Virus record (IMG/VR): IMGVR_UViG_3300045988_147927
Span: 1-64,000 of that record
Direction: 5' to 3' (one strand)
Origin: a virus
DNA: 64,000 nucleotides
The position numbers and the translations under genes are program-made. Below, in pieces: positions 1,248 through 45,854 of the stretch. Each line of letters starts with the position of its first letter. Within the stretch, counting starts at the first letter, position 1. The notes beneath the pieces were generated by a model. That model was not told the origin of the DNA. It did no database searches and was given only the letters and a program-made list of their open reading frames with translations.

Positions 1248-1781
1248 ATGGGAAGTAGTCAATCAGAATACAGTAATAATGTTAATAGGAAGATTACTGT
1301 GGGAGATACAAAAGATAGCAAGATAAATGCAATAGGACAGAGGGTGTTTGAGTTAGGTACTATACCGAAAGTATCTATTAATCTCTCTGAATATTTGCGT
1401 TTACAGGGGATTGAGAGGGAATATAAACATTTACAAAAGAAACAAGATAGGTTAGAGGTAGTTGAGCCTATAGATTGTTATGATTCATTAGAGGATAATC
1501 TGTATAATGAGTTAGAGGTGCTATATACAAAGTATCGTGGTTGTTTTATATGGGATTTATCCAATATTTTATGTGGTATTATAGCATTTTATATTGAGAA
1601 GTATCTTGAAGAGGCATCAATTAGTTTTGAAGATGAAGAGTTTTATAATGATTTAAAGTATATATCTGATACTATGCATCATTATTTTACTAAAGGTGAT
1701 GTTGATAGAGATGATGATGTAGAGAGTGTTAAAATAGCATTGGAGTTGTTACAAAAGCATGTATTTAGTTTGTGGACCTGA
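1248..1781 (+). CDS. hypothetical protein
   Basis: 177-aa ORF in the co-directional array. No motif recognised. Confidence 0.7.
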   Translation: MGSSQSEYSNNVNRKITVGDTKDSKINAIGQRVFELGTIPKVSINLSEYLRLQGIEREYKHLQKKQDRLEVVEPIDCYDSLEDNLYNELEVLYTKYRGCFIWDLSNILCGIIAFYIEKYLEEASISFEDEEFYNDLKYISDTMHHYFTKGDVDRDDDVESVKIALELLQKHVFSLWT

Positions 1782-1789
1782 TAGTGAAT

Positions 1790-1954
1790 ATGTGGCGATA
1801 TATTGTATTAGTTTGTTTGCTGTTCTTATTGGTATTTACCTTTGGGTGTGTAAACAATCAAAATAATAATCAACAGAATCAAATACAAGATACAAAACAA
1901 AAGATAGTTTATGTATGTCATAATTTAAAGGAGAGCAAAAAGGGTGAGAAATAA
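1790..1954 (+). CDS. small putative lipoprotein
   Basis: MWRYIVLVCLLFLLVFTFGCVNN: hydrophobic signal segment plus a lipobox-like FTFGC. Start uncertain (the track ORF starts at 1772). Confidence 0.5.
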   Translation: MWRYIVLVCLLFLLVFTFGCVNNQNNNQQNQIQDTKQKIVYVCHNLKESKKGEK

Positions 1955-2438
1955 TATAAATATCAATATGTGTAGGTGGAAAAGTGAATCTACATTTCAA
2001 TACATTCTAGCTAAACAATTATATCTTAATAATATCTGTATTCCTAATGTTACAATGTATACTCCTAAGAAGAGAGAATATGAGGCAGATTTCTTATATT
2101 TTAACTTAAAGAGTAGACGTTTAACAGAGGTTGAAATTAAAATTAATAAAATTGACTTTCAAAATGATTTTAATAAACCTAGATATCATGATAGTGAGGA
2201 TGTATCTTATTTATATTATGCATTACCTAGTGATGTGTATGAAAAACATAAGGATTTTATTGATTCTAGATTAGGGGATGCTGGGCTTATCTTAATTGAT
2301 AGGAAAGAGGATAAGGATGGTGCTTATTATACATTTGGTAGTTTTAAAAAGAAAGCTAAAAAACGTAAATATGCACTCCCTTTAACAGATGATAAAGTTA
2401 TTCGATATATGCGTATAGGCTGTATGAAATGGGTTTGA
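1944..2438 (+). CDS. putative PD-(D/E)XK-type nuclease (MmcB-like)
   Basis: EYEADFLYF...LTEVEIKINKIDFQNDFNK matches a D...E-x-K nuclease core followed by the K-x-x-DF-x-x-D pattern I associate with MmcB-like proteins. AAGGAGAG RBS ~8 nt upstream of the GTG start. Confidence 0.4.
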   Translation: MRNNININMCRWKSESTFQYILAKQLYLNNICIPNVTMYTPKKREYEADFLYFNLKSRRLTEVEIKINKIDFQNDFNKPRYHDSEDVSYLYYALPSDVYEKHKDFIDSRLGDAGLILIDRKEDKDGAYYTFGSFKKKAKKRKYALPLTDDKVIRYMRIGCMKWV

Positions 2439-2558
2439 AGAGTGATTAGTATGTATTAGACTAATTTAGGTTAATGATATGGAACACACAATCGCTATCA
2501 TACTATATTTGAATAATATATTACATGATGATACAGAAGATGAATAGGAGAGATAACT

Positions 2559-3161
2559 ATGGGAATGTTTAAACTAAAAGATATTCAAGCACGATTAGAT
2601 ATATTGTCTAGTACAAAGAATGTAGAATTATTAAATGGTGATTTACTTTACAAGTATACATTTGATACCGTGAGTTTTAATACATATAATTATGATGGTA
2701 TTGAGATTATTACATTTTTTGTGCATGATAATAAATACATTGAAGTTACCTATAAGTACTTAAATGCTATTATGACTAAGGCAATTAATATAGTTAAATA
2801 TAAAGATACTAATGATGGGGTTTTTTATTTAGACTCTTTTTCAATATTGAATGAGTTATTTACAACATTACCTAACTATGTTGATTATGTGGATATGCAG
2901 ACTTTGTGTAATGGGTTTGATTTTGTAGAGAAACAATATCTTAAAATAGTTGATACAGATGATAGGTTTGTAACGTCAGGTAAATCTTTTGTAGGTGGGA
3001 ATCATTTTTTTGTACGTTTTTATACGATTGATTTTGATGGTAAGGATGCACAAGGTGAAAATAAATATTTTGTAGAGTCTTTGCTTGATAGAGATTTGTT
3101 TAAGGGTGAGGAGTCTAATATTTCTAATTTAAATGAAGTGATTAAATATGCTAGTGAATAG
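2559..3161 (+). CDS. hypothetical protein
   Basis: 200-aa ORF preceded by AGGAGAG. Confidence 0.7.
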   Translation: MGMFKLKDIQARLDILSSTKNVELLNGDLLYKYTFDTVSFNTYNYDGIEIITFFVHDNKYIEVTYKYLNAIMTKAINIVKYKDTNDGVFYLDSFSILNELFTTLPNYVDYVDMQTLCNGFDFVEKQYLKIVDTDDRFVTSGKSFVGGNHFFVRFYTIDFDGKDAQGENKYFVESLLDRDLFKGEESNISNLNEVIKYASE

Positions 3162-3236
3162 TGGGTTATAAAGTGGGCTAGTATCTAGTGGTGTCGTGAG
3201 TTATAGTTGATTTGTTGTTAATTTATAGGGGTTTGT

Positions 3237-3488
3237 GTGGTGTGTATTCATAGGGATGTAGAACATAGGACACGTTCTTATACTGATAATCAAGAAGTGA
3301 TTCAAAGTCATAAGGAAGTGTTAGATAATATAGAGTATATATGGGGTTGTTATCCTGAGTTACGTTTGGGGCAGCTATTATGTTATATCTCTAGTGAGGT
3401 ATTAGGTACATCAGACCCTTTTTATTTACCTGATAGTCGATATGAGTTGTTTAAAGATACAGTAGCAGATAGGTATAAGAATCTATGA
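3237..3488 (+). CDS. hypothetical protein
   Basis: 83-aa ORF with GTG start; its end overlaps the next gene's start (ATGA). Confidence 0.55.
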   Translation: MVCIHRDVEHRTRSYTDNQEVIQSHKEVLDNIEYIWGCYPELRLGQLLCYISSEVLGTSDPFYLPDSRYELFKDTVADRYKNL

Positions 3489-9816: not shown

Positions 9817-11832
9817 ATGAGTACTATGTTTTTTAAACATGAAAAGATTTCTGCTGAAGATTATGTGAGTATTGTTAGACATATGTATGTGTTTAAGACG
9901 ATGATTCATCTATATAACAATACATTTTTCATTAAGGTTACAGATGATGGTTTAACATATTCTAGTGAGAATGGGTTATCATTGAGTGAGATTGACTATA
10001 TGTCAGATGTGGTTATAGATAAAGATTTGTTGTTGCGATATGCTAAGAGTTTAAAATATGAAGATAAGGTTAATGTTCTAGAAGTGTTACAGTCTTTATA
10101 CAATACAATTTCTTTTAGCATTGTTGATTATGAAGAATTGTCTAAAGCATTTCTACATACTAACATAGCACCTAATTTTGTGCATATCAGAGAGTTCAAG
10201 AGTCAGACAACGTATGAAAAGTTAAAACTGATTACAATGTGTCAGGAGTTAATCAACTACTTAGATAGGTATGACGATGAAGAGATGCTAGTACCTTATT
10301 ATGATTATCATAGTGATACTGTATCGTATAGTATTATGTACCTTAATAGAGATGCTATTAGGTTTAATAAAATTCCATTACATGGGAATGATGTGTTTGA
10401 TAGATTGTTGCCAGTAGTGGCTTTTAGTGGTTCATATGGAGTTAGTGTTAAACAGGTAGTAGATAATACAAATGCTGTTATACAATATTTGATTCGTTTA
10501 TATAATGAGGCTGTTAATGGTTCATATGATGTATTGAAGAGAGATGTGCTATGTGATAGCTCATTAGGGTACAATAAGGCTATAGAATATGTGAGTGAGT
10601 ATAACACTAAGAAAGATACAGATACTACTAAGTATTGTAAAGTTTCTAATGGGTTTATTCGAGATTGCTTGATGTATTTTAAAGATTTAAAGAGTGTTAG
10701 ACTATTTGTAGAGGCTATTGATAATCATTTAGATACGTTGAATAGACCGATATCAGATTCATTTTGTACTACTGCTAGTGCCATATATGGTAATATTAAG
10801 TTAAAGTATGAAAATGTTAATAAAGGGTATGATATATCTAAGGTTGATAGTGTAGTGAGTACATTATTGAAGTTAACAGGTGTTAATGGTGGATTACCTC
10901 ATATACATCAAAGTGCGTATATGTATTTGATTGATAGTTCTTATATGGATACTGATTTCATAGATAATTTAGAAGTGATGCTGTATCAAATGGATACATA
11001 TCTTGAATCTGGTACTGTAAGAGTAGAGTTTTATGGTGGTAGTGATAATACTATTAGAGTCTTTGGTGATGGTATAGATGAATTATATGATATGAGTGAT
11101 TATATTGATTGTGATTCAGTTAGGGGTATTATTACATTAAAAGAGGTACTTGATGTATTATGGTTTTCTTTACGAGTTGTAAAAGTATTTTATCATACGT
11201 GGAAGAGTGATGATACTGTATTTGTGGATGCTGTCAATGGGTTAAAAGTAATTTCTAGTTTACAGAAAGAGAAGTTACATTATGTGTCTACGTTTTTTAA
11301 TTATAGTGTTATTGAGTCTTTACGATTTAATACTGAGATGGTTGGATATTTTAATGATGATTTATTGATGTATGGTGATACTATAATTCCTAATAGTTGT
11401 AGATATACAAATGAGGAGTTGAGAGAAGCTGATTTCATGTACAATATTGCTAAAACTAGGGCATTAGGATTATGTACTATTTTAAACTCTATAGCTCATG
11501 AGATGTTCTTTAATAGGGAAGCATATAGTAAGAGTTCTTATATTACGATGACAACAAATAAAGAGTTTAATACCTTATATGTTAAAGCTGATGGGATTGA
11601 GGAGCGTAAAATTACAATTCCTAAAGAGTTCTATCATACTGTATATGCATTGTTTAATCATAGTGATTATAGTTTTGAGAATATAACTTTTAGTGATGTG
11701 ATTCATATTCTATGTACATTAAAAGATACTATAGGTAATTCTAGTAAGTTTACAGGGTTTTATGGTGTTATGGGTTTTAGCTCACTCAAAGATAAATTAG
11801 ACTTATTGACTGATTATATAGGTAAAAAATAG
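9817..11832 (+). CDS. hypothetical protein (671 aa), paralogue of 7228..9366 lacking the C-terminal module
   Basis: Long ORF ending at TAG 11830-11832. The following ORF is in the same frame. Confidence 0.8.
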   Translation: MSTMFFKHEKISAEDYVSIVRHMYVFKTMIHLYNNTFFIKVTDDGLTYSSENGLSLSEIDYMSDVVIDKDLLLRYAKSLKYEDKVNVLEVLQSLYNTISFSIVDYEELSKAFLHTNIAPNFVHIREFKSQTTYEKLKLITMCQELINYLDRYDDEEMLVPYYDYHSDTVSYSIMYLNRDAIRFNKIPLHGNDVFDRLLPVVAFSGSYGVSVKQVVDNTNAVIQYLIRLYNEAVNGSYDVLKRDVLCDSSLGYNKAIEYVSEYNTKKDTDTTKYCKVSNGFIRDCLMYFKDLKSVRLFVEAIDNHLDTLNRPISDSFCTTASAIYGNIKLKYENVNKGYDISKVDSVVSTLLKLTGVNGGLPHIHQSAYMYLIDSSYMDTDFIDNLEVMLYQMDTYLESGTVRVEFYGGSDNTIRVFGDGIDELYDMSDYIDCDSVRGIITLKEVLDVLWFSLRVVKVFYHTWKSDDTVFVDAVNGLKVISSLQKEKLHYVSTFFNYSVIESLRFNTEMVGYFNDDLLMYGDTIIPNSCRYTNEELREADFMYNIAKTRALGLCTILNSIAHEMFFNREAYSKSSYITMTTNKEFNTLYVKADGIEERKITIPKEFYHTVYALFNHSDYSFENITFSDVIHILCTLKDTIGNSSKFTGFYGVMGFSSLKDKLDLLTDYIGKK

Positions 11833-11862
11833 GGTACTATTGAGGGTAATGAAAGTACTACT

Positions 11863-12051
11863 ATGACAAAAGAGTTAGCTAAGGCTTTTATTGAGAGTGG
11901 GTATGAATATATTTCATTGTATAAAGGTGTTATGATTGTATACAGTAAAGATGGGAATACATCAGAAATAGTTCCTAAGTCTTTGTATAAGTTCTTCTAT
12001 GATACTGATAAGTTTAATCGAGTATCATTACAACAATATATAGAGGATTAA
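11863..12051 (+). CDS. small protein homologous to the C-terminus of 7228..9366
   Basis: KELAKAFIESGYEYISLYKG...SEIVPKSLYKFFYDTD aligns with KQLVQDFIDNGYVLAVKDG...SEVVPKSLHKYFYNID. Confidence 0.6.
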   Translation: MTKELAKAFIESGYEYISLYKGVMIVYSKDGNTSEIVPKSLYKFFYDTDKFNRVSLQQYIED

Positions 12052-12058
12052 ATATGAG

Positions 12059-12292
12059 GTGAGTATGGATGGTGTTAATGCTATATTAAATTATGCTTAT
12101 GGTGTATATTCTATCCTAGGTATATCTATCTATGTGTTTATTGTTATGCTGATTAGTGTTGTGTGTGGCATTAGTAAGTCATATAGATTAGATGTATTCT
12201 GTAAAATATATACCAAGGTTTCTATTGTTATATCTATTATATTTGTAGTAGTGGTGTCTATTGTAAATACAGTTATGTTTTTATTTGAATAA
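12059..12292 (+). CDS. small membrane protein
   Basis: Two hydrophobic segments. Start ambiguous (GTG 12059 or ATG 12065, after GAGGTG). Confidence 0.55.
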   Translation: MSMDGVNAILNYAYGVYSILGISIYVFIVMLISVVCGISKSYRLDVFCKIYTKVSIVISIIFVVVVSIVNTVMFLFE

Positions 12293-12298
12293 TAGGGA

Positions 12299-12490
12299 GT
12301 GGTGTTGTTGAGTCAGTTTAATATAAGTGTTTATAAGGTGATGAGATATTTAGGGATTGAATATATTGCTCATAAAGATGGTATATATTATATGGTAACT
12401 GATAGTGGTGAGAGAATTAGTGGTGAGGAGTTCTTTCAGGTGGTGTGTCGAGAGTTGCTTAATGATAAAGAAGAGTTGTATATGAAATAG
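12299..12490 (+). CDS. hypothetical protein
   Basis: 63-aa ORF followed directly by a terminator. Confidence 0.55.
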   Translation: MVLLSQFNISVYKVMRYLGIEYIAHKDGIYYMVTDSGERISGEEFFQVVCRELLNDKEELYMK

Positions 12491-25190: not shown

Positions 25191-26102
25191 TTGAAGTATA
25201 GTAGTGATTATATCGTAGAATCATTAAGGGGTAATTCTATTAATGAAGCTAAAGTTGTAACATTTGATGGTAAGAGTAATCCAGATTTTGGTCAGGCTGT
25301 TATTATGGCTGGTGGAGCAGGTTCAGGCAAAGGAACAGCTTTGAAGAGTGTTATCATGATGCAGGGTAAAATCTTTGATGTTGATGAGTTAAAACAATTA
25401 TATGTAAAAGGTTCTAAAGCAGGTATTTTTGATGATATTCGTGGTGGTAATTATGATTTCAAGAATCCTGATGATGTAGCTTTATTACATCAAAAAGTAA
25501 AAGAGTTAGGTTTAAAAGATAGAAGGGAACAGGCTTTCTTTTCATCATTATCTACTAATCGTTTACCTAATATTGTATTTGATATTACAGGTGATGAAGA
25601 ATCTAAGTTGACTAAGTTGTCAATGATGTGTAAGGATATTGGATATAAAGTAACTTTAGTATGGGTAGTTGCTAATAGGGAAGAAGCATTTATTCGTAAT
25701 TTACAACGTGATAGGACTGTTCCTGATGAAGTATTCCATGCTACACATAATAATGTAAAAACAAGTGTATTTAGTTTTCTTGAAGGTAGTGGTAGTAAAT
25801 TCTGTGATAGTGCTTGGATAGTATTCTCTAGTGGTGCTAGTGCTGAGGAAATGACACCTGATGAAAAGAGAGCTTTAGAAAATAATAGGGTTATTAGATT
25901 AGAAAAAAAAGGTTCTAAATTTGTTGTACCTGATAAAGTATATCGTAAAATAATGAAGGTTACAGGTAGGAATGAGATAGACCCTAAGAATCCTCAAAAT
26001 TATATTAGTCAGAAAGATTTTGCTAAAGATGGTTTAAAAGATGCTATTAAATCTGTTAGAGGTGGTAAAACTACAGTTAGGAAAACTATTTTTAATAAGT
26101 AG
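25191..26102 (+). CDS. P-loop NTPase / kinase-like protein (zeta-toxin/AAA_33-like)
   Basis: Walker A MAGGAGSGKGT near the N-terminus. TTG start after GTGAGGT. Confidence 0.55.
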   Translation: MKYSSDYIVESLRGNSINEAKVVTFDGKSNPDFGQAVIMAGGAGSGKGTALKSVIMMQGKIFDVDELKQLYVKGSKAGIFDDIRGGNYDFKNPDDVALLHQKVKELGLKDRREQAFFSSLSTNRLPNIVFDITGDEESKLTKLSMMCKDIGYKVTLVWVVANREEAFIRNLQRDRTVPDEVFHATHNNVKTSVFSFLEGSGSKFCDSAWIVFSSGASAEEMTPDEKRALENNRVIRLEKKGSKFVVPDKVYRKIMKVTGRNEIDPKNPQNYISQKDFAKDGLKDAIKSVRGGKTTVRKTIFNK

Positions 26103-26116
26103 TAGAGGTATTTTAA

Positions 26117-26167
26117 ATGAAAATACTACGTAGTGTTGTTGAGATGGAACATATAGATGGGATTTAT
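26117..26167 (+). CDS. tail-completion / virion-morphogenesis protein, exon 1 (17 codons)
   Basis: ATG after TAGAGGT; MKILRSVVEMEHIDGIY. It is followed by an in-frame TAA, which is the first triplet of the inserted element. Confidence 0.6.
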
Positions 26168-26616
26168 TAAGATGTCAAAATAACAATCATGAATTTATTC
26201 ATAAATATTTTTGACAGAATAGTAAGTCTGTAGGGAAACTTGCAGATAGTAGCAACTAGATGTTGTTCAACAAAGAAACTGAATTGCTGGGAACTCCTAA
26301 AGCTAGCTAAACTACAACGTGATATCTATTAATATGATATGGATGTGAATGTGGCGAAAGCAGAGAAAATTAGTTAGATGGTATAAGGTTAAACCCTAAG
26401 TACTGCGATAATGGATAATCAGCAGCCAAGCCCGTGAGGGAAGGTTCAACGACTATTCCTCGTGAGGGAAGTACATTCAAGCGAATGGAAGTGGTTTCGC
26501 CTAAGTCGTAAAAGTGATATGGATAAGATATAGTCTGTGCTTTATTGAAAGATAAAGATGCACGTAGTGGTGCTGGCTAAGTGGTAGCGTACTTAGTTGA
26601 ACGAGCGTTCTCTCAA
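26168..26616 (+). ncRNA. group I intron catalytic core (copy A)
   Basis: This stretch is more GC-rich than its surroundings. It contains AAGATATAGTC (26525-26535), which I recognise as the classical P7 3' strand and which pairs with GACTAT in GGTTCAACGACTAT. It has GNRA-capped hairpins (CCC-GTGA-GGG; TCTGTAGG-GAAA-CTTGCAGA). The hairpin CTTTAT-TGAAAG-ATAAAG (26540-26557) covaries with copy B. Confidence 0.7.
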
Positions 26617-26718
26617 AAATTTCATAGTTATAGTTATATATTTGATAATAGTTCCTATTAGTATTATAATAAAGATATTAGGATTCTTTATTCAGTATGA
26701 GAGGAGGTGTTATCATCT

Positions 26719-27810
26719 ATGAATAAAAGTTTTAAAGTTAGGATATATCCGACACAAGAACAAAAAATATTGTTAGAAAAGACCTTTGGTGCAAACAGGT
26801 TTGTTTATAATTACTTTCTCAACTTAAAAAGTAAGTTGTATGAGTTTTATAAAATAAGAATTAGTTATAATAATTCTTCTAAGATTCTAACTGAGTTGAA
26901 GAAACAAAAAACTTGGTTTAAAGAAGTTGATAGTGTTTCTTTACAACAAACACTTAGAGATTTAGATAGTGCGTATCAAAACTTTTTTAGTAGGAGATGT
27001 AAATATCCTAAATTTAAGAGAAAAGATGATAAAAACTCATATCGTACTAACTCTAATATTAAAATAGATAATTGGTATATAACAGTTCCTAAGGTGGGAA
27101 TGTTACATTTTAGAGATAAAAACAGATTTAGTGGTGTTACTAAAATTTATAATGTAACAATATCTAAGACATCTAGTGGAAAATATTTTGCTAGCATTTC
27201 AGCTGAGGTTGATATCGCAACTTTTGAGAAAAGCAATCAAAATGTAGGTATAGACTTGGGATTGAAAGATTTTGCTATTCTTAATACTGGAGAAAAGATA
27301 CATAATCCTAGAATATTAAAACATCTTGAAGATAAATACAGAAAGTTAGCTAAATCTGTTTCAAGAAAAGTTAAAGGTTCAGTTAATTATCAAAAAGCTA
27401 GGATTAAGTTAGCTAGGTTTCATGAATACATAGTTAATATACGAAAAGATTTTCTACACAAACTATCTACTAATATAGTTAAGACTTATGATATTATGTG
27501 TATAGAAAATCTCAATATTAGTGGTTTAATGAAAAATCGTAGATTAGAAAAATCATTTCAGAATGTTTCATTGTATGAGTTCATATGGATGTTAGAGTAT
27601 AAAGCTAAGTGGTATGGTAAGACTATTTCTAAAGTAGATAGATTTTATCCATCATCACAGTTATGTTCTAATTGTGGTTATAAGAATAAAGAAGTTAAAA
27701 ATCTTAGCGTTCGTGAGTGGGATTGTCCTGAATGTGGAACTATTCATGATAGAGATATAAACTCAGCAATTAATATTTTGCATGAGGGATTACGACTTTT
27801 AGAGATATAA
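26719..27810 (+). CDS. tnpB: TnpB (IS200/IS605 OrfB-type RNA-guided nuclease), apparently intact
   Basis: GAGGAGGTG RBS. N-terminal [13 protein letters not shown]. RuvC residues in [18 protein letters not shown] and [11 protein letters not shown]. Zinc ribbon CSNCGYKN...WDCPECG. Confidence 0.85.
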
Positions 27811-27817
27811 ATATATG

Positions 27818-27948
27818 AATATATAAGTATAACTGTGGGACACATGGGGATAGCCTATTGTCTGGTTGTAAGACTCTTTTAACATAGTATTAAAAGAGCG
27901 AACCATTGGGTAGGAACCTCACTGACTTTGAGTCATAGAGGATGTCAG
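27818..27948 (+). ncRNA. conserved 3'-terminal RNA module of element A (putative omega-RNA scaffold overlapping the intron 3' end)
   Basis: About 130 nt, nearly identical to 32876..33009 and clearly related to 42229..42359. Ends GAGGATGTCAG. The terminal hairpin TGACT-TTG-AGTCA covaries between copies. Confidence 0.65.
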
Positions 27949-28512
27949 ATTACTGTATCTCAACATATGTTAAAGCTAGGTTCTAAAAGGATACAAAAGG
28001 AGTTAGGGAGTCTTTATTATCAAGACTTCCTAATATTTATGGCTGTTACTTTAGCTAAAGAGTTTGAACGTGCTATAGATACACAAAGATATAAAGGTAC
28101 TAAGTGGGCGCCCTTGTCGATTTCTTATTTAACATATAAACAGAGAAAGAATTTATCTCTTAATATATGGGAGGCGACCGGTTATTTAAAGAATAGTATT
28201 ACTGTATTCAAGAAGTTTACTAATTTTATTGCAGTAGGTTTTCAACAAAAACAATATTATCCTAATAGTGGAGCACAGGTAAATATGGTTGCTCGGTATG
28301 TTGAGTATGGTACTAATAGGAATACAGTAAATGGTAAGAAAACAATGCCAGCTAGACCTTTATTTAGACCTATAGCTAGTTATGTTTCTAAACATATATC
28401 AAGGTATTATAAGACTTATCTAAAAGAGATAGATAAACTCAGAAATAAAAAGATACCATACTTATATCTTAGGAATAAGAGTGTTAAAAGGTCATCTAAA
28501 AATAGGAAGTAG
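27949..28512 (+). CDS. tail-completion / virion-morphogenesis protein (Mu gpG / HK97 gp10-like), exon 2
   Basis: KWAPLSISYLTYKQRKN...IWEATGYLKNSI...VGF...YVEYGT...MPARPLFRP matches the W-x-PL...sG-x-L-x-S...PaRpF pattern of tail-completion proteins. There is no start or RBS at the exon boundary. Confidence 0.65.
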   Translation: MTVSQHMLKLGSKRIQKELGSLYYQDFLIFMAVTLAKEFERAIDTQRYKGTKWAPLSISYLTYKQRKNLSLNIWEATGYLKNSITVFKKFTNFIAVGFQQKQYYPNSGAQVNMVARYVEYGTNRNTVNGKKTMPARPLFRPIASYVSKHISRYYKTYLKEIDKLRNKKIPYLYLRNKSVKRSSKNRK

Positions 28513-28560: not shown

Positions 28561-28603
28561 AGATATGTAGAGTGGTTAGATTAATTTATAAGGTGTGGTA
28601 TAT

Positions 28604-29206
28604 ATGGATAAACAAAAATTAATTTTAGAAGAACTTAGAGGTGTAGAGAATATTAATGAATCTAGCTTAGGTAGATTATATCAACATATAGGTAAAGATT
28701 ATATTGTATTCATTACATCTGATAGACAGGCATTAGATGTTACTGAAAATAATAAACGTAGGAAAGAGTTAGAGAAGTATATTCGTTTAGCTGGTTTTGG
28801 GTATAATAAAGTAGTTGGAAATTATGTAGAGGAAGAGACTGGTGAACCTAAGAAAGAGAAGTCTTTTGTAGTTTATGGTAAAGATGAGGAAGAGATGCTT
28901 AAAATGTTTAAGCGTTTGGGTGAAAAGTATGAGCAAGACTCTATCTTATTTGTAGATTTAGATGGTAATGCTTATCTTTTATATACATATGGTAGCAAAA
29001 AGGGTACCAGTGATAAACTTGGTAATTTTCATGTAGGTATTGTAGGTGATTTTTATTCTACAATAGGTAAAAAAGCCTTTAGATTTGAGGTTAGTGAGTC
29101 TTACTATAAGGAAAGTTTTACTACATTTAGTGGTATGCTACACGAAAATTTCATGAAATTTGTTAATAAGTACGATGATTTTGATATTAGATGGGAAAAT
29201 AGATAA
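28604..29206 (+). CDS. hypothetical protein
   Basis: ATG 28604 after AAGGTG. The track ORF starts at GTG 28595. Confidence 0.65.
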   Translation: MDKQKLILEELRGVENINESSLGRLYQHIGKDYIVFITSDRQALDVTENNKRRKELEKYIRLAGFGYNKVVGNYVEEETGEPKKEKSFVVYGKDEEEMLKMFKRLGEKYEQDSILFVDLDGNAYLLYTYGSKKGTSDKLGNFHVGIVGDFYSTIGKKAFRFEVSESYYKESFTTFSGMLHENFMKFVNKYDDFDIRWENR

Positions 29207-32568: not shown

Positions 32569-32631
32569 GTGTTATAATACTAATATAATATTAATATTAA
32601 TATTATATTTATGTTTAATAAGAGGTGTATT

Positions 32632-32871
32632 ATGGAAGAAAAACAATTAGAGGATTATCAAGTTAGGTTTATCGACGAGTATCGCACGTTATGTGAAAGG
32701 TGTTCTAAACTACATAGTATATTAGTTAAGTATGACGCTGGTACATTAGACTTTTCTCCTAAATGTAGTTCTGAGTTGCTAAGTAGTCAGTTAGAGTATA
32801 TGGAAGGTTATAAGTATATTCTAGAGGTTAGGGCTGAATTAGAAGGTATTGACTTGTCTAAGTATATGTAG
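32632..32871 (+). CDS. conserved phage protein of unknown function (crAss001_48-like pattern)
   Basis: ATG 32632 after AGAGGTG. The RCSKLHSILVKYDAGTLDFSPKCSSELLSSQLEYMEGYKYILEVRAELEGI pattern is one I recall from a widespread phage family. Confidence 0.5.
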   Translation: MEEKQLEDYQVRFIDEYRTLCERCSKLHSILVKYDAGTLDFSPKCSSELLSSQLEYMEGYKYILEVRAELEGIDLSKYM

Positions 32872-33009
32872 TATATTATAAGTATAACCGTGGGACACAT
32901 GGGGATAGCCTATTGTCTGGTTGTAAGACTCTTTTAACATAGTATTAAAAGAGCGAACCGTTGGGTAGGAACCTCACTGACTTAATTAAAAGTCAAGAGA
33001 GGATGTCAG
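32864..33009 (+). mobile_element. solo copy of the IStron 3'-terminal RNA module (orphan omega-RNA-like / right-end remnant)
   Basis: AAGTATAACCGTGGGACACATGGGGATAGCCTATTGTCTGGTTGTAAGACTCTTTTAACATAGTATTAAAAGAGCGAACCGTTGGGTAGGAACCTCACTGACTT...GAGGATGTCAG differs from 27818..27948 by only a few substitutions plus a changed terminal hairpin. No ribozyme core or tnpB is adjacent. Confidence 0.75.
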
Positions 33010-39696: not shown

Positions 39697-40053
39697 ATGC
39701 ATAAACCGTCATTAATAAAAACAGAAATAACACAGTCTTTTACAAGTAGACAGGATAAAATATCTCGATATTCTAAATTAAAGAGGTTAGTTAATCTCAA
39801 TGGTGATACATATATAGAAACACCTAACAAGTTTACAATAGAGGAGAGTAATAGGGATATTTACTACTCTGTTGAGAAAGGTTTTGAGGATAGATTAGAT
39901 TTAATATCTAATAAATTTTATGGTACACCGTTAATGTACTGGGCAATAGCTGTTATGAATCATATAGATAACCCTTTAGATGTTCCTGTAGGTGTTGTGT
40001 TGAGGATACCAGCCATTGAGTCCATTTACGATACAGGGGTGATTCAAATTTGA
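39697..40053 (+). CDS. LysM-like tail protein (P2 gpX / XkdP-like)
   Basis: FEDRLDLISNKFYGTPLMYWAIAVMNHIDNPLDVPVGVVLRIP is a LysM-type pattern, in the conserved position upstream of the hub gene. Confidence 0.6.
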   Translation: MHKPSLIKTEITQSFTSRQDKISRYSKLKRLVNLNGDTYIETPNKFTIEESNRDIYYSVEKGFEDRLDLISNKFYGTPLMYWAIAVMNHIDNPLDVPVGVVLRIPAIESIYDTGVIQI

Positions 40054-40541
40054 GTGATTACAAAGATAGTCTTATTACTAGAAATTTAAGTCCTCATCAG
40101 CCTCTATATGCTTTTATAGATTTAAGTATTGATGGGCATAATATATCATATTTCGGTAATAAAGAATTTAATGATTCAGTAATTAGTCTTAATGTGGAAA
40201 GAAAAGGTACTTCTAATCAAGATTTAGCTGGTTCTACTTTTGATATAGAGTTGTATGATGATACTGCTTTAAGAATAGAAGAGCTGTTAGCGAATACTAT
40301 ACCAGCAGGTTCAAATTTTAAGACCGCTAAAGAGTTGAAAGATACTGGTAATAAGGTTACTGATGGTAATATCGAGTGGAAACAACAAGAGGAAGCTAAG
40401 AAAAAAGAGCAGGCAGAGAAGGATAATACATATACAGAGGAAGATGAAAAGAAAGACCCTAATCATAAAGCAGGCACTAAAAAACAGTCTGGTGGTGCAA
40501 CTCAGTCTGGAAATGTTAGGTGTAAATATGGATGGTGTGAT
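40050..40541 (+). CDS. baseplate hub / late-control-D-like multidomain protein, exon 1 (164 codons)
   Basis: TTG start after AGGGGTG. Ends ...NVRCKYGWCD, then an in-frame TAA that is the first triplet of element B. Confidence 0.65.
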
Positions 40542-41028
40542 TAAATGTGCTACATATATTCATAGTTATAGTTATGAATAGGTATGTATATAGCACGTAT
40601 AGTCCATACATCTAGTGATAGGTGTGTGTCGAGTGGTAACACTCGGAGATTCATTGAATTGCTGGAAAGTCCTAAAGCTCAATTAACTACAACGTGATAT
40701 CTAATAATATGATATGAGCGTGAATGGTAGCGAAAGCAGAAAAAATAATTGAGATGGTATAAGGTGAAATAAAAGCTATATCACATATGATATAGTCCTA
40801 AGTACTGAGATAATGGACAATCAGCAGCCAAGCACGTAAGTGAAGGTTCAACGACTATCCTGTGAAGGAGTACGGCTCTAGTGAGTGGGTGAGAATCCCT
40901 TAAATGGAAGTGGTGAAGGTCTTTCAGATAGAAAGATTAAGATATAGTCTGTGCCTACATGAAAGTGTAGGATGCACGTAGTGGTGCTGGCTAGAAGTAG
41001 CGATTCTAGTTGAACGAGCATCCTCTCA
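40542..41028 (+). ncRNA. group I intron catalytic core (copy B)
   Basis: AAGATATAGTC at 40939-40949. GGTTCAACGACTAT. Hairpins CGAGTG-GTAA-CACTCG and CAC-GTAA-GTG. CCTACA-TGAAAG-TGTAGG (40954-40971) covaries with copy A. Confidence 0.7.
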
Positions 41029-41131
41029 TAGAGAGTTTTATGGTTTTATATATATTGAAATTAATCTCCTTTTGTAGTACATTAATAATATAATGTTTAT
41101 TGTTAATGATACGAAAGGGGGTGTAAATCTC

Positions 41132-42224
41132 GTGAATAAGAGTTTTAAAGTTAGGATTTATCCAAATCAAGAACAGAAAGTCTTGATTGATAAGACATTT
41201 GGATGTGCAAGATTCATATACAATTTTATGTTGAATCTGAAACAAAAATTGTATGAGTATCATAATATTTCTTTAGGTTTTTATGACCTATCTAAGATTC
41301 TTACAGAAATTAAAAGACATAAATTGTGGCTTAAAGAAGTTGATAAGTGGGCATTACAAAATGCTTTAAAAGATTTAGATAGTGCTTATAAAAGATTTTA
41401 TAATGGTGGTGGATTTCCTAAGTTTAAATCTAAAAAGCGAGATAAAAACTCCTATCGTACAAATCATAGAATACAGTTAATTGTAGATAATAAGAAAGTT
41501 AAAATTTCCTAAAGTTGGTAGTATTAAGTTCAGAGATAAAAGTAGATTTGATGGAATTACTAAAATTTATAATATCACTATTTCTAGGACATCTAGTGGA
41601 AAATATTATGCTAGTATATCTGCTGAGGTTAATATTGAACATTTTGAGAAAACCAATCAGAGTGTGGGTATTGACTTGGGATTAAAAGATTTCTGTATCT
41701 TAAATGATGGAACTAAGTTTGAAAATCCTAAATTTTTAGTTAGAAATGAAAAGCGACTTAGATTACTTCAAAAATCGTTAAGTCGCAAGATTTGTGGTTC
41801 TAAAAACTATGAAAAAGCTAAGATAAAGTTAGCTAAATTTCATGAGTATATTGTTAATTTTCGTAAAGATTATTTACATAAAATATCGTTATATTTGGTT
41901 AGAAATTATGATATTTTATGTGCAGAAACATTGAGAGTTAAGAATATGGTAAAGAATCATAAGTTAGCTAAATCAATTAGTGATGTTAGTTGGTATGAAT
42001 TTTGTAGGCAGTTAGAGTATAAGTGTCTGTGGTATGGAAAGAGATTTGTACAGATTAGTACATATTTTGCATCATCACAAATATGTTCTAATTGTGGGTA
42101 TAAGAATTCTGATGTTAAAAATCTCAATGTAAGAGAATGGACTTGCTCTAAATGTGGCAGTCATAATGAAAGAGATATCAATGCATCGATTAATATTTTG
42201 CATGAAGGATTAAGAATTATATAA
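41132..42224 (+). pseudogene. tnpB: tnpB with a single frameshift near nt 41490-41510
   Basis: GTG start after GAAAGGGGGTG. The N-terminal frame stops at 41510-41512 (...DNKKVKIS*). The continuation [45 protein letters not shown]...GIDLGLKDF is in the +1 frame. The downstream RuvC and zinc-ribbon motifs are intact. Confidence 0.75.
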
Positions 42225-42228
42225 TTTC

Positions 42229-42359
42229 AGTATATAGAACCATAGGACATATGGGGATAGCCTACTGTCATAGTGTAAGACGTATAGTGAATCTGTTTCA
42301 TTATGTGTAATTATTGGGTAGGAACTTCGTCACTTTAATGAGTGGTGAGAGGATGTCAG
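42229..42359 (+). ncRNA. 3'-terminal RNA module of element B
   Basis: GGACATATGGGGATAGCCTACTGTC...TTGGGTAGGAACTTCGTCACTTTAATGAGTGGTGAGAGGATGTCAG is homologous to 27818..27948. Confidence 0.6.
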
Positions 42360-45300
42360 AGAAAAGGTCAAGTAATAGAAGATATTTCTCTTATAGGGAA
42401 GGCTTTAAAATATACCTTAGCTTTTGAGGGGCCTGCTTTAACCCTAACATTAAATTGTGTGGCTGAGGCTGATGTTAAGACTACGCAAAAGTTGAATATG
42501 GAGTTTAGCGCTGAAAAGTTTGGGGGTAAGCCATCAGATATTGTTAGAGCATTATGTGAGAAAGCTCATATCAAGATTGGTCGGATTGTAGAAACAAAAC
42601 CAATCTTAGGTGATGATGGTAAACCTAAAGAGTTTAAGATGGGTTCTCGTACTATGAGGGAGTTTATTGCAGATGAGTTGTTAGAAAAAGCTACACCTAC
42701 TGATTCTGATAAACCTGGTTATAAATTCTTTTTGCAAGTTGTTGATGGGGAAGAGAAAGCATTTTTTGTTCCTAATGATATGTATGGTGATATGACTGTT
42801 ATCACATATAAGAAGATGGAAGAGACTACAACAACTACTACAACCACAACAACTTCTAATGATAAGCCTAGTGGGTTAAGTCCGTATCAAAAAGTTATGG
42901 GTGTATCTACGCCAATTCTAGGGCATACAAGAGATACTAATGTTAGTGTAGTAGGTGATGGTAAGGTTGTCTTTGTAGGTGATTTTAGAGTTAGAGATTT
43001 ACAAAATTCAGTACCTGATAATAAAGATTTAATGTATATCTATGATGATAAAGCTAATTATAGGTGGTTAAAGGATAACTTTGAATTAATAGAGTCTAAG
43101 TTACATATGGGGTATCGTGTATATTTTATGTTAGGGCATAATGATATAGACAATATTCTTAATTATGTTGAGTTTTATAATAAAGTAGCTAAAGAATTAG
43201 ATACAAAGGGTGTTCAAGTCTTTGTTGTATCTGTTTTACCTGTTTTCATGGGTAAAACAGATTTACATAATAGTAATATACAACGATTTAATAATGCTAT
43301 AAATCAGAATAGAGTTAGGGAATTGCATTATGTAAATATTTATGGTGATATTTTAAAGACTTTAAGAAGTAATAATACTAAACAAGATGGTATTTCTTAT
43401 AATAATAGATTAATGCAAGATGTATATAATAGAATAGTCTATTATCGTGAGGATTTAACTACATCTAAGAATATAGGTCTTAGTAGAAGTAATATTATAA
43501 ATGGGTTAGAATTTGTTACACATACATTACCGGATATGTTAAATACAAATTCATATCAAGGTAATGTTTCAGATGATGAGTATTATGGTAGTTTTATTGG
43601 TGTAGAGGAAGATACATCAAACCTAGTAGCATTAGCTTTAGCTGATGCCTCAAATGAGGATATAGCAAATTTACTATCTGAGATGACATTGTGGAAGATG
43701 TACTTAGAGGATGAGAATAATAAGGTATCTAAGGTAGGTATACTTGGTAGTGATAAGACTGAGAGTATCGATAAGTCTAAGTTACAGTTTGATAAAAATA
43801 AATTAGTTAATGCTTTCATAGATGTACTAGATAAGAAGGGATATACTAAGGAAGTTAAAGAGTATGTATCACTTGTAAATACATTTACTGATACTATTAA
43901 AGATAAGAAATTAGATACAACTGATAAATATGTAAATGCTTTGACTATGTTATCTAGCAAACTTGGTAAAGATAGTTCTATTTCAAAAACTATTACTAAT
44001 GTTGTTAAGGTTATTACTGAGAATAAAGATAAGGTTCTTAATGTTAAGGACAAAAAGATTTCTTATGATGATTTAGCTACAGATATAGTTTCTAAATTAC
44101 TACCTAATCAGAGTGCTAATATAAGTAAAATCACTGATAAGGTTTCATCTATTATGAAGTTAGATAGAGATAAGATAAAAAAAGGTGATTATTCTGAATT
44201 ACAAGGAATGTTAGCTAAAGAGCTAGGGATTAATGATAAAGATATTAATAAATATGTAGAGATAGGTAAGACTATATCTGAGATATATAAGAATAGGGAA
44301 TACTTTGACATAAAAGATTTAAGTCTAGTTTCTACTGATTTATTAAAGAGTGTTGTAGGGGAAGAAAAAGTAAAAAAAGTTGAGAAGTATATAGATACTG
44401 CTCAGAATTTATACAAGGCTTTTAGTGGTGCTAAAGATATAAAGGATATCAATAGTGCTGTAACTTCTTTGTCTGATGTGTTAGGTAAGAATACAAAAAT
44501 TAATAGGTATATAGATACTGCTAGGTCTTTTATGGATATCATTAATAAAGGTAGTGTTGGTACAGGCATCATTAATACTAATAATGGAATTAGTAAAATC
44601 ATAAATGATAGGTTGCCTAATATAGCACAGGCAGGTACTTTAGGTGGAGTTGTGGCATCTACTGTAGGTATATCACCAACTTCTACTAAAGAGGTGTTAA
44701 AGGCTTATGTTCCTAAAGGTGTTGATAGTGGTGTTACTAAGGTAAATGGTAGTCCTACTGATGGTACTAAGACAGGTCAATCATCTAATGTTACAAAAGA
44801 TGGGATATCAGATGAGGAAATGAAGAAAGGTGTTAGGTCTGTTACTTTTGGTGGTAAAAAGACTAAAATGGAGATTTGTGGTGAGTATGAGATTTACACA
44901 GGAAGACCTGATGGTAGGGTAATTAGTTTCTCACCAGAGTTTGAGAGTGATAATATAGCTACAAATAAAGTACCTACAAGTGCATTGACAATAGATGGTG
45001 TTAGGAATGAGATGCTAGAGTGTACTATTGAGGGTGTTGGTGGTGCTTTAGCTAGTGATGCTTATATGGAGAGGTCTAATCAAGAGGGGAGTAGTAATGT
45101 TGGTGTTGTGTTAGGTATGAGTGGTTCTTCTTTCAAGAATTTAGAATCATCAGCCGCAAGTATGTGGAGTCGATATTTTAGTTCTGTATATGGTGCTAGT
45201 TTAGAGATATTAGGCGATACTAGAGTTAAGTTTCAAGGACATATCAAGATAGCAGTTTATACTAAGTACGGTTTTTTACACCATACCAGTGGTATTTACA

Positions 45301-45854
45301 ATATACAAGGTATAACAGATTCTATTAATGGTGGTATGTTTACTACTACACTTGATTTACAGAAAAATAGTGATGAAGTTAAGAAAAAGAAAAAAGGAAA
45401 GGAAAAGAATAAAGTGGATGAAACAAAAGGACATGATGTAGGTGATGGTAAATACTGGGTTAAACAAAGTGGCAAGGTATCTTTAGAGGGTGCTATAAGT
45501 GGGATACCTAGTGCTTTAGATATGTTAGGTAAGTGGTTCTATGATAGGTCAGGGCATAAGTTGGTTGTTACCTCTGTTACTGATGGAGACCATGCATATG
45601 GTGAACACTGTCATGCTAATGGTTGGAAGATGGATGTCAATGATTGGTATGGGCCAGAGGGGTTACAAGGTGGATTAATTATTAATAGTGATGATACACC
45701 TGGCTCGATTTGTCTTGACTTTATTGAATATGGTAGGTCTATAGGTCTAGGTATGAATTTTGAGGGAGACCATATAGATATTCAAATGGATGGCACTGAG
45801 TGGAATGAAAATAATCCTGGTGGTGCTAAAGATAATGGTGGTTTTAGAGGATAG
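42360..45854 (+). CDS. baseplate hub multidomain protein, exon 2 (1164 codons) with SGNH-like and LAS/M15-like peptidase domains
   Basis: Begins RKGQVIEDISLIGKALKYTLAFEGPALTLTLNC (hub-type beta region). It has a poly-Thr linker (T9), then VVFVGDFRVRDL...YFMLGHNDI...VVSVLPV (SGNH-like), a long Lys-rich repeat region, and C-terminal SGHKLVVTSVTDGDHAYGEHCHANGWKMDV (zinc D,D-/L,D-peptidase-like). Confidence 0.65.
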   Translation, partial: RKGQVIEDISLIGKALKYTLAFEGPALTLTLNCVAEADVKTTQKLNMEFSAEKFGGKPSDIVRALCEKAHIKIGRIVETKPILGDDGKPKEFKMGSRTMREFIADELLEKATPTDSDKPGYKFFLQVVDGEEKAFFVPNDMYGDMTVITYKKMEETTTTTTTTTTSNDKPSGLSPYQKVMGVSTPILGHTRDTNVSVVGDGKVVFVGDFRVRDLQNSVPDNKDLMYIYDDKANYRWLKDNFELIESKLHMGYRVYFMLGHNDIDNILNYVEFYNKVAKELDTKGVQVFVVSVLPVFMGKTDLHNSNIQRFNNAINQNRVRELHYVNIYGDILKTLRSNNTKQDGISYNNRLMQDVYNRIVYYREDLTTSKNIGLSRSNIINGLEFVTHTLPDMLNTNSYQGNVSDDEYYGSFIGVEEDTSNLVALALADASNEDIANLLSEMTLWKMYLEDENNKVSKVGILGSDKTESIDKSKLQFDKNKLVNAFIDVLDKKGYTKEVKEYVSLVNTFTDTIKDKKLDTTDKYVNALTMLSSKLGKDSSISKTITNVVKVITENKDKVLNVKDKKISYDDLATDIVSKLLPNQSANISKITDKVSSIMKLDRDKIKKGDYSELQGMLAKELGINDKDINKYVEIGKTISEIYKNREYFDIKDLSLVSTDLLKSVVGEEKVKKVEKYIDTAQNLYKAFSGAKDIKDINSAVTSLSDVLGKNTKINRYIDTARSFMDIINKGSVGTGIINTNNGISKIINDRLPNIAQAGTLGGVVASTVGISPTSTKEVLKAYVPKGVDSGVTKVNGSPTDGTKTGQSSNVTKDGISDEEMKKGVRSVTFGGKKTKMEICGEYEIYTGRPDGRVISFSPEFESDNIATNKVPTSALTIDGVRNEMLECTIEGVGGALASDAYMERSNQEGSSNVGVVLGMSGSSFKNLESSAASMWSRYFSSVYGASLEILGDTRVKFQGHIKIAVYTKYGFLHHTSGIYNIQGITDSINGGMFTTTLDLQKNSDEVKKKKKGKEKNKVDETKGHDVGDGKYWVKQSGKVSLEGAISGIPSALDMLGKWFYDRSGHKLVVTSVTDGDHAYGEHCHANGWKMDVNDWYGPEGLQGGLIINSDDTPGSICLDFIEYGRSIGLGMNFEGDHIDIQMDGTEWNENNPGGAKDNGGFRG

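Follow-up and report, generated by a model that had tools for sequence, protein, structure and literature searches.

The element described here, element A, takes up 1781 nucleotides (nt) of a 64,000-nt stretch of viral DNA (IMG/VR virus record IMGVR_UViG_3300045988_147927, positions 1 to 64,000; this whole stretch is called the window below) and interrupts the gene for a tail-completion or Neck1 protein. The phage is an uncultured myovirus with a G+C content of 31%, and its nearest cultured relative by the sheath protein is Streptococcus phage vB_SagM-GXN1, at an identity of only 41%. By its features we identify element A as a non-autonomous IStron of group A (CdISt1-like), in other words, a tnpB-only member of the IS200/IS605 transposon family in which a subclass IA2 group I ribozyme makes up the left part. 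As a structural identification this is nearly certain. For the full mechanism, in which the element would be spliced, would yield a processed omega RNA and would direct the cleavage that leads to nuclease homing, we estimate a probability of roughly 0.87. The initial annotation of this interval had already proposed an IStron architecture, and the proposal is borne out by the TTTAT...TCAG ends, the empty sites, the covarying ribozyme and a tnpB gene as in group A IStrons. IStrons, phage-borne ones included, have been described before, and we count element A as a further case of this known element type because phage IStrons are already listed in a 2014 survey (PMC4227781) and another lies in a Clostridioides phage record. 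Only in IStrons does one sequence combine a ribozyme with a DNA transposon and an RNA-guided nuclease, and the present lineage bears on how such elements spread once tnpA has been lost.

The interrupted gene is found in two coding pieces. As had been stated from the outset, a 17-codon open reading frame (ORF) with a ribosome-binding site (AGAGG) 9 nt upstream runs directly into TAA, and the ORF at 27928-28512, which lacks a start and a ribosome-binding site of its own, encodes the bulk of a tail-completion protein. The latter assignment agrees with matches of the host gene to three PHROG families labelled 'tail completion or Neck1' (phrog_222, E 1.2e-10; phrog_26, E 1.8e-9; phrog_5, 3.2e-4); a match to Pfam Phage_tail_S was weak (E 3.8e-4, 20.8 bits, below the cut-off of 24.3). 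Cuts after T26167 and after G27948, the two positions named in the initial annotation, join T26167 to A27949 and give an in-frame protein of 204 amino acids (aa), and the predicted spliced junction reads ...GGGATTTAT + ATTACTGTATC.... In a search that covered 5.8 billion proteins, uninterrupted homologues of the spliced protein were 204-206 aa long and 86-92% identical. They are collinear with it across the junction (...DGIY/ITVSQHM..., where the slash marks the joint), with no gap at this point in them or in relatives at 40-66% identity. The 5' exon sequence (MKILRSVVEMEHIDGIY) is common to the homologues, and residues 1-47 of the spliced protein are conserved among them (I16, V20, G28, D43, F44). 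The gene is single-copy within the window, and virion assembly would depend on splicing.

At the DNA level, the boundaries of the intron are also those of the transposon. Group A IStrons insert after a T-rich motif of five bases (TTGAT, ATTAT or TTTAT) and terminate in TCAG (PMC4227781). Element A lies directly after TTTAT and ends in TCAG, and a second copy in the window, element B, has corresponding ends (GTGAT/...TCAG/). Three related phage contigs (L001-L003), two of which are about 200 kb in length, carry the empty site GATGGGATTTAT/ATCACTG.... Because of these empty sites, the insertion of element A can be placed after TTTAT with base precision, and the comparison reveals no target-site duplication. 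Apart from a 41-aa ORF that overlaps the promoter region described below, tnpB is the only ORF of 40 aa or more in the intron, and none of the ORFs in element A was a protein-only homing endonuclease of the GIY-YIG, HNH or LAGLIDADG type.

The 5' part of the element had been read as a group I intron, and an Rfam scan of this part returned a full-length match to RF00028 (68.6 bits, with a gathering score of 50). The P7-like pairing that had been pointed out is the real P7, in which GACTA (26451-26455) is paired with TAGTC (26531-26535), and the presence of P7.1, P7.2, P9, P9.1 and P9.2 places the predicted ribozyme in subclass IA2. Covariation was assessed on an alignment of ten distinct IStron copies, from which RNAalifold predicted the canonical helices; the explicit structure used for the counts included P1 and the P7 pseudoknot. 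Standard pairs were found in 98.1% of the cells, compared with 35-40% when the partners were slid by 1-3 columns, and changes on both sides occurred in 46 of the 94 pairs, compared with at most 11 in the slid controls. None of 500 shuffles matched the observed pairing values. Each of P7.1, P7.2, P9, P9.1 and P9.2 contained compensatory changes, and a script check found four compensatory variants in P3. The core motifs AAGATATAGTC and GTTCAACGACTA, which were used to look for other introns in the window, occurred in elements A and B only.

The splice sites are also consistent with a group I intron. All ten copies had the U·G wobble at the 5' splice site, and the last base of the intron is a G at the 3' splice site (G27948, the omega-G). 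At position -3 the pair was U-A in six copies and G-C in four, and at position -4 it was U-A in five and C-G in one. The guide follows the exon motif, such that TTAT occurs with GUAAG, CTAT with GUAGG and GAT with GUCC; therefore, the ribozyme guide and the transposon target motif co-vary. The TTAT and GAT guide/target subfamilies are both represented in this one genome. The long left-end hairpin is found in other copies with varying sequence and is deleted in one (L041). In the RNA it would extend P1, and in the DNA it probably acts as the left-end subterminal palindrome. We also observed that an invariant GUUCAAC in J6/7-P7 (26444-26450) is complementary to an invariant GUUGAAC just past P9.2 (26597-26603). 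RNAalifold pairs the two (alignment columns 341-345 and 525-529); both sides are invariant, which leaves covariation uninformative here, and they could form an alternative or tertiary pairing or be a signal at the DNA level.

The tnpB gene that follows P9.2 had been called intact, which is confirmed by the Pfam domains of its product (OrfB_IS605, 2e-27; Cas12f1-like_TNB, 2.8e-25; HTH_OrfB_IS605, 7.6e-17) and by its alignment to ISDra2 TnpB (8BF8, 8EXA, 8H1J; E 2.5e-90, residues 2-358). The RuvC D-E-D motifs (GIDLG, CIENL, HDRDIN) and the CxxC...CxxC zinc finger are intact. Full-length tnpB ORFs are retained at identities of 55-93% between copies, which suggests purifying selection. A sigma-70-like promoter, the best in the region, lies between the ribozyme and tnpB, and its hexamers and spacing are identical in 11 distinct copies (the window, L007, L010, L016, L017, L022, L031 and L039-L042). 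It may allow tnpB and the omega RNA to be made apart from the transcription of the ribozyme and the host gene. The conserved 3' module of about 130 nt ending in G, which had been noted earlier, corresponds to the transposon right end and a putative omega-RNA scaffold. Its terminal hairpin (27917-27941) is located seven bases ahead of the 3' splice site. No Rfam family matched the module, and its single-sequence folds were modestly better than those of shuffles (z -1.2 to -2.9), so the case for its structure rests on comparative evidence: the stems covary in an alignment of 35 distinct copies. By analogy with ISDra2 and with the CboIStron work (PMC10690162), the putative guide of the omega RNA would be the first ~16 nt of the 3' exon (27949-27964, ATTACTGTATCTCAAC).

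We propose that a phage transcript would read through the entire element A, upon which P1 would form between the exon AUUUAU and the guide GUAAGU, with the wobble U26167·G26222. Free guanosine would attack after U26167, the terminal G27948 would dock, and ligation of the exons would restore the 204-aa frame. Because the intron opens with TAA, unspliced RNA would give a 17-aa peptide only. Separate transcription of tnpB and the 3' module probably starts from the internal promoter (26642-26670), and this transcript would yield TnpB together with an omega RNA guided by the opening ~16 nt of the 3' exon. Intron-less alleles (TTTAT and then the target), in genomes that co-infect or that have undergone excision, would be cut by the complex of TnpB and omega RNA. 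Repair by recombination would then reinstate the element, resulting in homing or retention. New sites would require TnpA in trans, and none was found in the window. On a broader scale, we tentatively suggest, with less than even confidence, that the tnpB-only IStrons in the present lineage of large uncultured myoviruses spread and persist mainly by RNA-guided homing in co-infection, as a programmable counterpart of homing-endonuclease introns. Guide, target motif and transposon end would then co-evolve as the TTAT and GAT subfamilies, intron-less alleles would escape by synonymous mismatches between guide and target, and orphan modules such as that at 32877-33009 would possibly give extra guides in trans. 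TnpB-driven intron homing is 'awaiting experimental validation' according to a 2026 review (PMC13565253).

Some observations weigh against this interpretation. We found no convincing P10 with the 3' exon by hand: element A offers three offset pairs and element B none. IStron 3' flanks differ at every site, and the lack of a convincing P10 is expected for IStrons, since their 3' flanks are arbitrary. Whole-window Rfam scans (at gathering and at E up to 0.001) miss both introns. The introns do appear when about 2 kb is scanned alone; the miss is due to the speed filters, which the large P5 and P8 insertions probably defeat, and it is a methodological trap rather than evidence against an intron. 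The internal promoter may be no more than a conserved match to the consensus. A tblastn search of the window and the flanks with IS200/IS608 TnpA queries gave no tnpA, a result that is suggestive only. As no tnpA was detected, we regard element A as non-autonomous, like most published IStron copies, in which ORF A (tnpA) is deleted or ORF B is the sole ORF, and which are believed to be mobilised in trans (PMC4227781). Finally, the sampled intron-less alleles of site A (L001-L003, L011 and L021) all show 3-4 mismatches to the guide within its first 16 positions, position 3 among them, so that current homing at site A is doubtful. These mismatches could be a result of plain divergence or of selection for cleavage resistance.

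It might be argued that the insertion is dead, that no splicing takes place, and that the interrupted gene is either defunct or yields only a product shortened at its N-terminus, made from an internal start (MAVTLAK, 157 aa). The automatic gene calls on L004 and L005 indeed begin at this internal methionine (P0008), and the frameshifted tnpB of element B is a sign of some decay in this genome. However, the intact ribozyme core exceeds the gathering score and is upheld by compensatory substitutions; the U·G wobble and the terminal G are present; and the joined exons are exactly in frame. Moreover, residues 1-47 are conserved in the homologues of a gene that is single-copy in the window, and phage variants with just 93% identity in the host protein still have this insertion. 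We therefore consider a dead insertion quite improbable.

We give a similarly small chance to an ordinary phage homing intron that uses TnpB as its nuclease, reaches new sites by reverse splicing at short motifs complementary to the guide rather than by DNA transposition through TnpA, and is IStron-like by descent only. To some extent this would fit the lack of a detected tnpA in the window and flanks, the exon motif, which defines the site and is complementary to the ribozyme's internal guide, and the restriction of the exact right-end pattern to viral contigs. However, most published IStron copies are also without tnpA (PMC4227781), and the combination of a T-rich motif, TCAG ends, end hairpins and no target duplication is the signature of IS200/IS605. 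Reverse splicing would need a reverse transcriptase, and none turned up in an analysis that included no search for one. In addition, at least one intron-less copy (L015) shares this right end and has a left end of its own.

A misjoining of a bacterial IStron into the phage contig, which might be suspected in an uncultured genome where repeats can mislead assemblers, is excluded for practical purposes, because the same junctions occur in independent assemblies with the identical insertion (the contigs L004 and L036 extend to its 3' junction, and the entire element is present in L042), both junctions are base-precise with respect to the empty sites, and dozens of related insertions are found in other large viral contigs.

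The IStron family to which element A belongs was traced in IMG/VR by its right-end pattern, which gave 45 loci, many with intron, tnpB and right end. The number of distinct 3' flanks indicates about 31 insertion sites, mostly in viral contigs much longer than 100 kb (up to 235 kb). In eight further copies, joining the exons at the predicted sites restores long ORFs. Several copies, including the one described here (winA, L008, L041, L045 and L049a), lie close to the start of their host genes, after no more than 10-17 codons. A scan for a bacterial source, made with the exact right-end pattern in one genome per species across 185,579 species, gave a single match, by chance, in unrelated DNA.

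Not all members of the family contain a ribozyme. L015, in which the intron is lacking, combines the family's right end with a short left end of its own, located after ATTAT, and it looks like a genuine intron-less IS. Having both ends, it suggests that the DNA element is able to insert without the ribozyme. The 2014 survey had found no separate copies of the IS component (PMC4227781). Four other copies (L017, L018, L040 and L044, in IMG/VR contigs 3300008754_000004, 3300008518_000007, 3300008742_000004 and 3300008279_000012, respectively) consist of tnpB and the right end, with neither ribozyme nor left end, and look like deletion derivatives. Their break is just past P9.2 (…ACATT/CTCTTAAAATA…), and L040 shows nested or duplicated right ends. 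In another contig (L049/L009; 3300008755_000091) there are two intron starts about 1.5 kb apart (upstream-window coordinates 140 and 1691), and the second belongs to a 910-nt mini-IStron comprising a ribozyme, about 90 C-terminal tnpB codons and a right end.

Among known systems, the group A IStrons CdISt1 of Clostridioides difficile, FnISt1 of Fusobacterium and LbISt1 of Leptotrichia are the closest in architecture, with a 5' IA2 ribozyme with P7.1/P7.2 and an extended P9, tnpB (ORF B) downstream, a TCAG end, no target duplication and usually no tnpA; their sizes are 1.76-2.2 kb, compared with 1781 nt for element A and 1818 nt for element B (PMC4227781). In contrast to these, element A is only a distant relative in sequence: it is 69% identical over 43% of its length to the closest GenBank phage record, its TnpB is at most 48.5% identical to that of any phage record, its host is a large uncultured myovirus and not a bacterial chromosome, and TTAT and GAT subfamilies are present in one genome. 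IStrons were defined in C. difficile, and the 2014 survey (Tourasse et al.) lists two in Clostridium botulinum phages (PMC4227781). These two, CbISt3 and CbISt4 of phages c-st and D-1873 (group B), are likewise phage-borne, but they belong to the IS607 family (serine TnpA), with GG-ending sites and a CGG terminus, whereas element A is of the IS200/IS605 family with a T-rich site and TCAG. CboIStron (Zedaveinyte et al., PMC10690162; Mortman & Sternberg 2026, PMC13521648) resembles the arrangement predicted for element A in that the intron's 3' end doubles as omega RNA. Its TnpB targets the empty donor joint, a terminal stem-loop stands beside its 3' splice site, and its omega RNA and splicing compete (PMC10690162, PMC13521648). 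Unlike CboIStron, element A is not of IS607 type, and its conserved internal promoter may separate the two RNA fates.

A further phage-borne case is an unannotated CdISt1-like or group A-like IStron in Clostridioides phage ES-S-0173-01 (CP067352, 63169-65064, equal to 1394-3289 of the locus L071, which spans CP067352 61776-66486). It lies after TTGAT, has the guide GUCAG and ends in TTCAG. It interrupts an essential phage gene, that of the terminase large subunit, in frame, with a TerL_ATPase half and a Terminase_6C half, and differs from element A in both the phage and the host gene. We recognised it by blastn and by the pairing of guide and target, as the scan of L071 gave no Rfam group I match at E up to 0.01. 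No publication describing this IStron was found. Its 3' module has a weak match to RAGATH-18 (30.3 bits, below gathering). ISDra2 is alike in the full-length alignment of TnpB, in a target motif related to TTGAT and in an omega RNA from the right end, but it has tnpA and no intron. The IA2 introns of Twort-like Staphylococcus phages (Twort and the Silviavirus phages Romulus and Remus) are about 80% identical to the core of element A (26282-26456) and also split phage genes. The introns of these phages carry homing-endonuclease ORFs or none, and are not known to carry tnpB or a transposon right end.

Table 1. Positions of element A, its host gene and related features in the window.
Feature	Position	Strand	Description
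5' exon of tail-completion/Neck1 gene	26117..26167	+	17 codons, MKILRSVVEMEHIDGIY; AGAGG 9 nt upstream; TAA at 26168
TTTAT	26163-26167	+	last five bases of 5' exon; transposon-adjacent motif and 5' strand of P1
IStron A, whole element	26168..27948	+	1781 nt; intron boundaries equal transposon boundaries; empty sites in L001-L003
Long left-end hairpin	26173..26216	+	TGTCAAAA...TTTTGACA; read from sequence
Internal guide sequence	26220..26227	+	UAGUAAGU; G26222-U26167 wobble; UA 26220-26221 pair with intron +1, +2
Group I ribozyme core	26222..26557	+	P2 to P9 including P7.1/P7.2; RF00028 full-length, 68.6 bits, E 8e-17
Peripheral helices	26560..26606	+	P9.1 26560-26573, P9.2 ~26575-26598, then invariant TTGAACGAGC; compensatory changes; outside Rfam model
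Sigma-70-like promoter	26642..26670	+	TTGATA-17-TATAAT; 11/12 consensus positions; between ribozyme and tnpB
tnpB	26719..27810	+	IS200/IS605-family RNA-guided nuclease; 363 aa, intact; GGAGG 11 nt upstream; after P9.2
3' module	27811..27948	+	putative omega-RNA scaffold and transposon right end; 138 nt non-coding, ends GAGGATGTCAG
3' exon of tail-completion/Neck1 gene	27949..28512	+	187 codons plus stop; PHROG matches
Orphan 3' module	32877..33009	+	no intron, no tnpB; intergenic, just after crAss001_48-like gene (32611-32871)
IStron B	40542..42359	+	1818 nt, 70% identical to A; after GTGAT; RF00028 75.1 bits at 40602-40971
Tail-module gene split by B	exons 40050-40541 and 42360-45854	+	1329 aa
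tnpB of B	41132-42224	+	one +1 frameshift near 41505, in AAAATTT run

Element B belongs to the GAT/GUCC subfamily. Its empty site is found in L052/L053, the flanks of which are 96-97% identical to the window, and there is no target duplication. This site contains a perfect TGAT motif and a 20/20 match to the guide. The presence and absence of element B between near-identical contigs points to recent mobility, although its tnpB is frameshifted, which could represent a recent pseudogene or a sequencing error. Joining the exons restores the frame, and the junction GWCD/RKGQ is collinear in 19 loci. A protein search with the spliced protein gave no homologues at 1e-10, and the junction was confirmed through the related loci. 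The right-end search of IMG/VR gave no match at the site of element B.

The orphan 3' module is 92% identical to the last 127 nt of element A. It is a deletion relic, because 43 codons from the C-terminal part of tnpB survive upstream of this site in L035. An empty site could not be defined for the module, as homology with the relatives stops at the upstream gene. The module might supply the guide AAAGTGTATATCTTCT in trans to a TnpB that is independent of TnpA. In one of the contigs with the empty site for element A (L001, ~199 kb), a gene for a 417-aa TnpB (11186-12439) closely follows the tail-tube gene on its downstream side, at about the place that the orphan module takes in the window.

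In the setting described here, an IStron of IS200/IS605 type interrupts a structural gene that is single-copy in the window of a large phage, a second copy and an orphan module accompany it, and phage co-infection is a natural setting for homing. This makes the lineage a promising natural system for TnpB-driven homing, for the co-evolution of splice guide and nuclease motif, and for the resistance that target alleles may show. A point of practical use is that gene callers split or truncate genes interrupted by IStrons and the default Rfam filters miss the intron in long scans.

The neighbours of the interrupted gene are a Zeta-toxin/AAA_33-like P-loop protein (25191-26102) upstream and a protein of the S-adenosylmethionine-lyase family (28601-29206; PF23780, 5e-20) downstream, the latter presumably with an anti-restriction type function.

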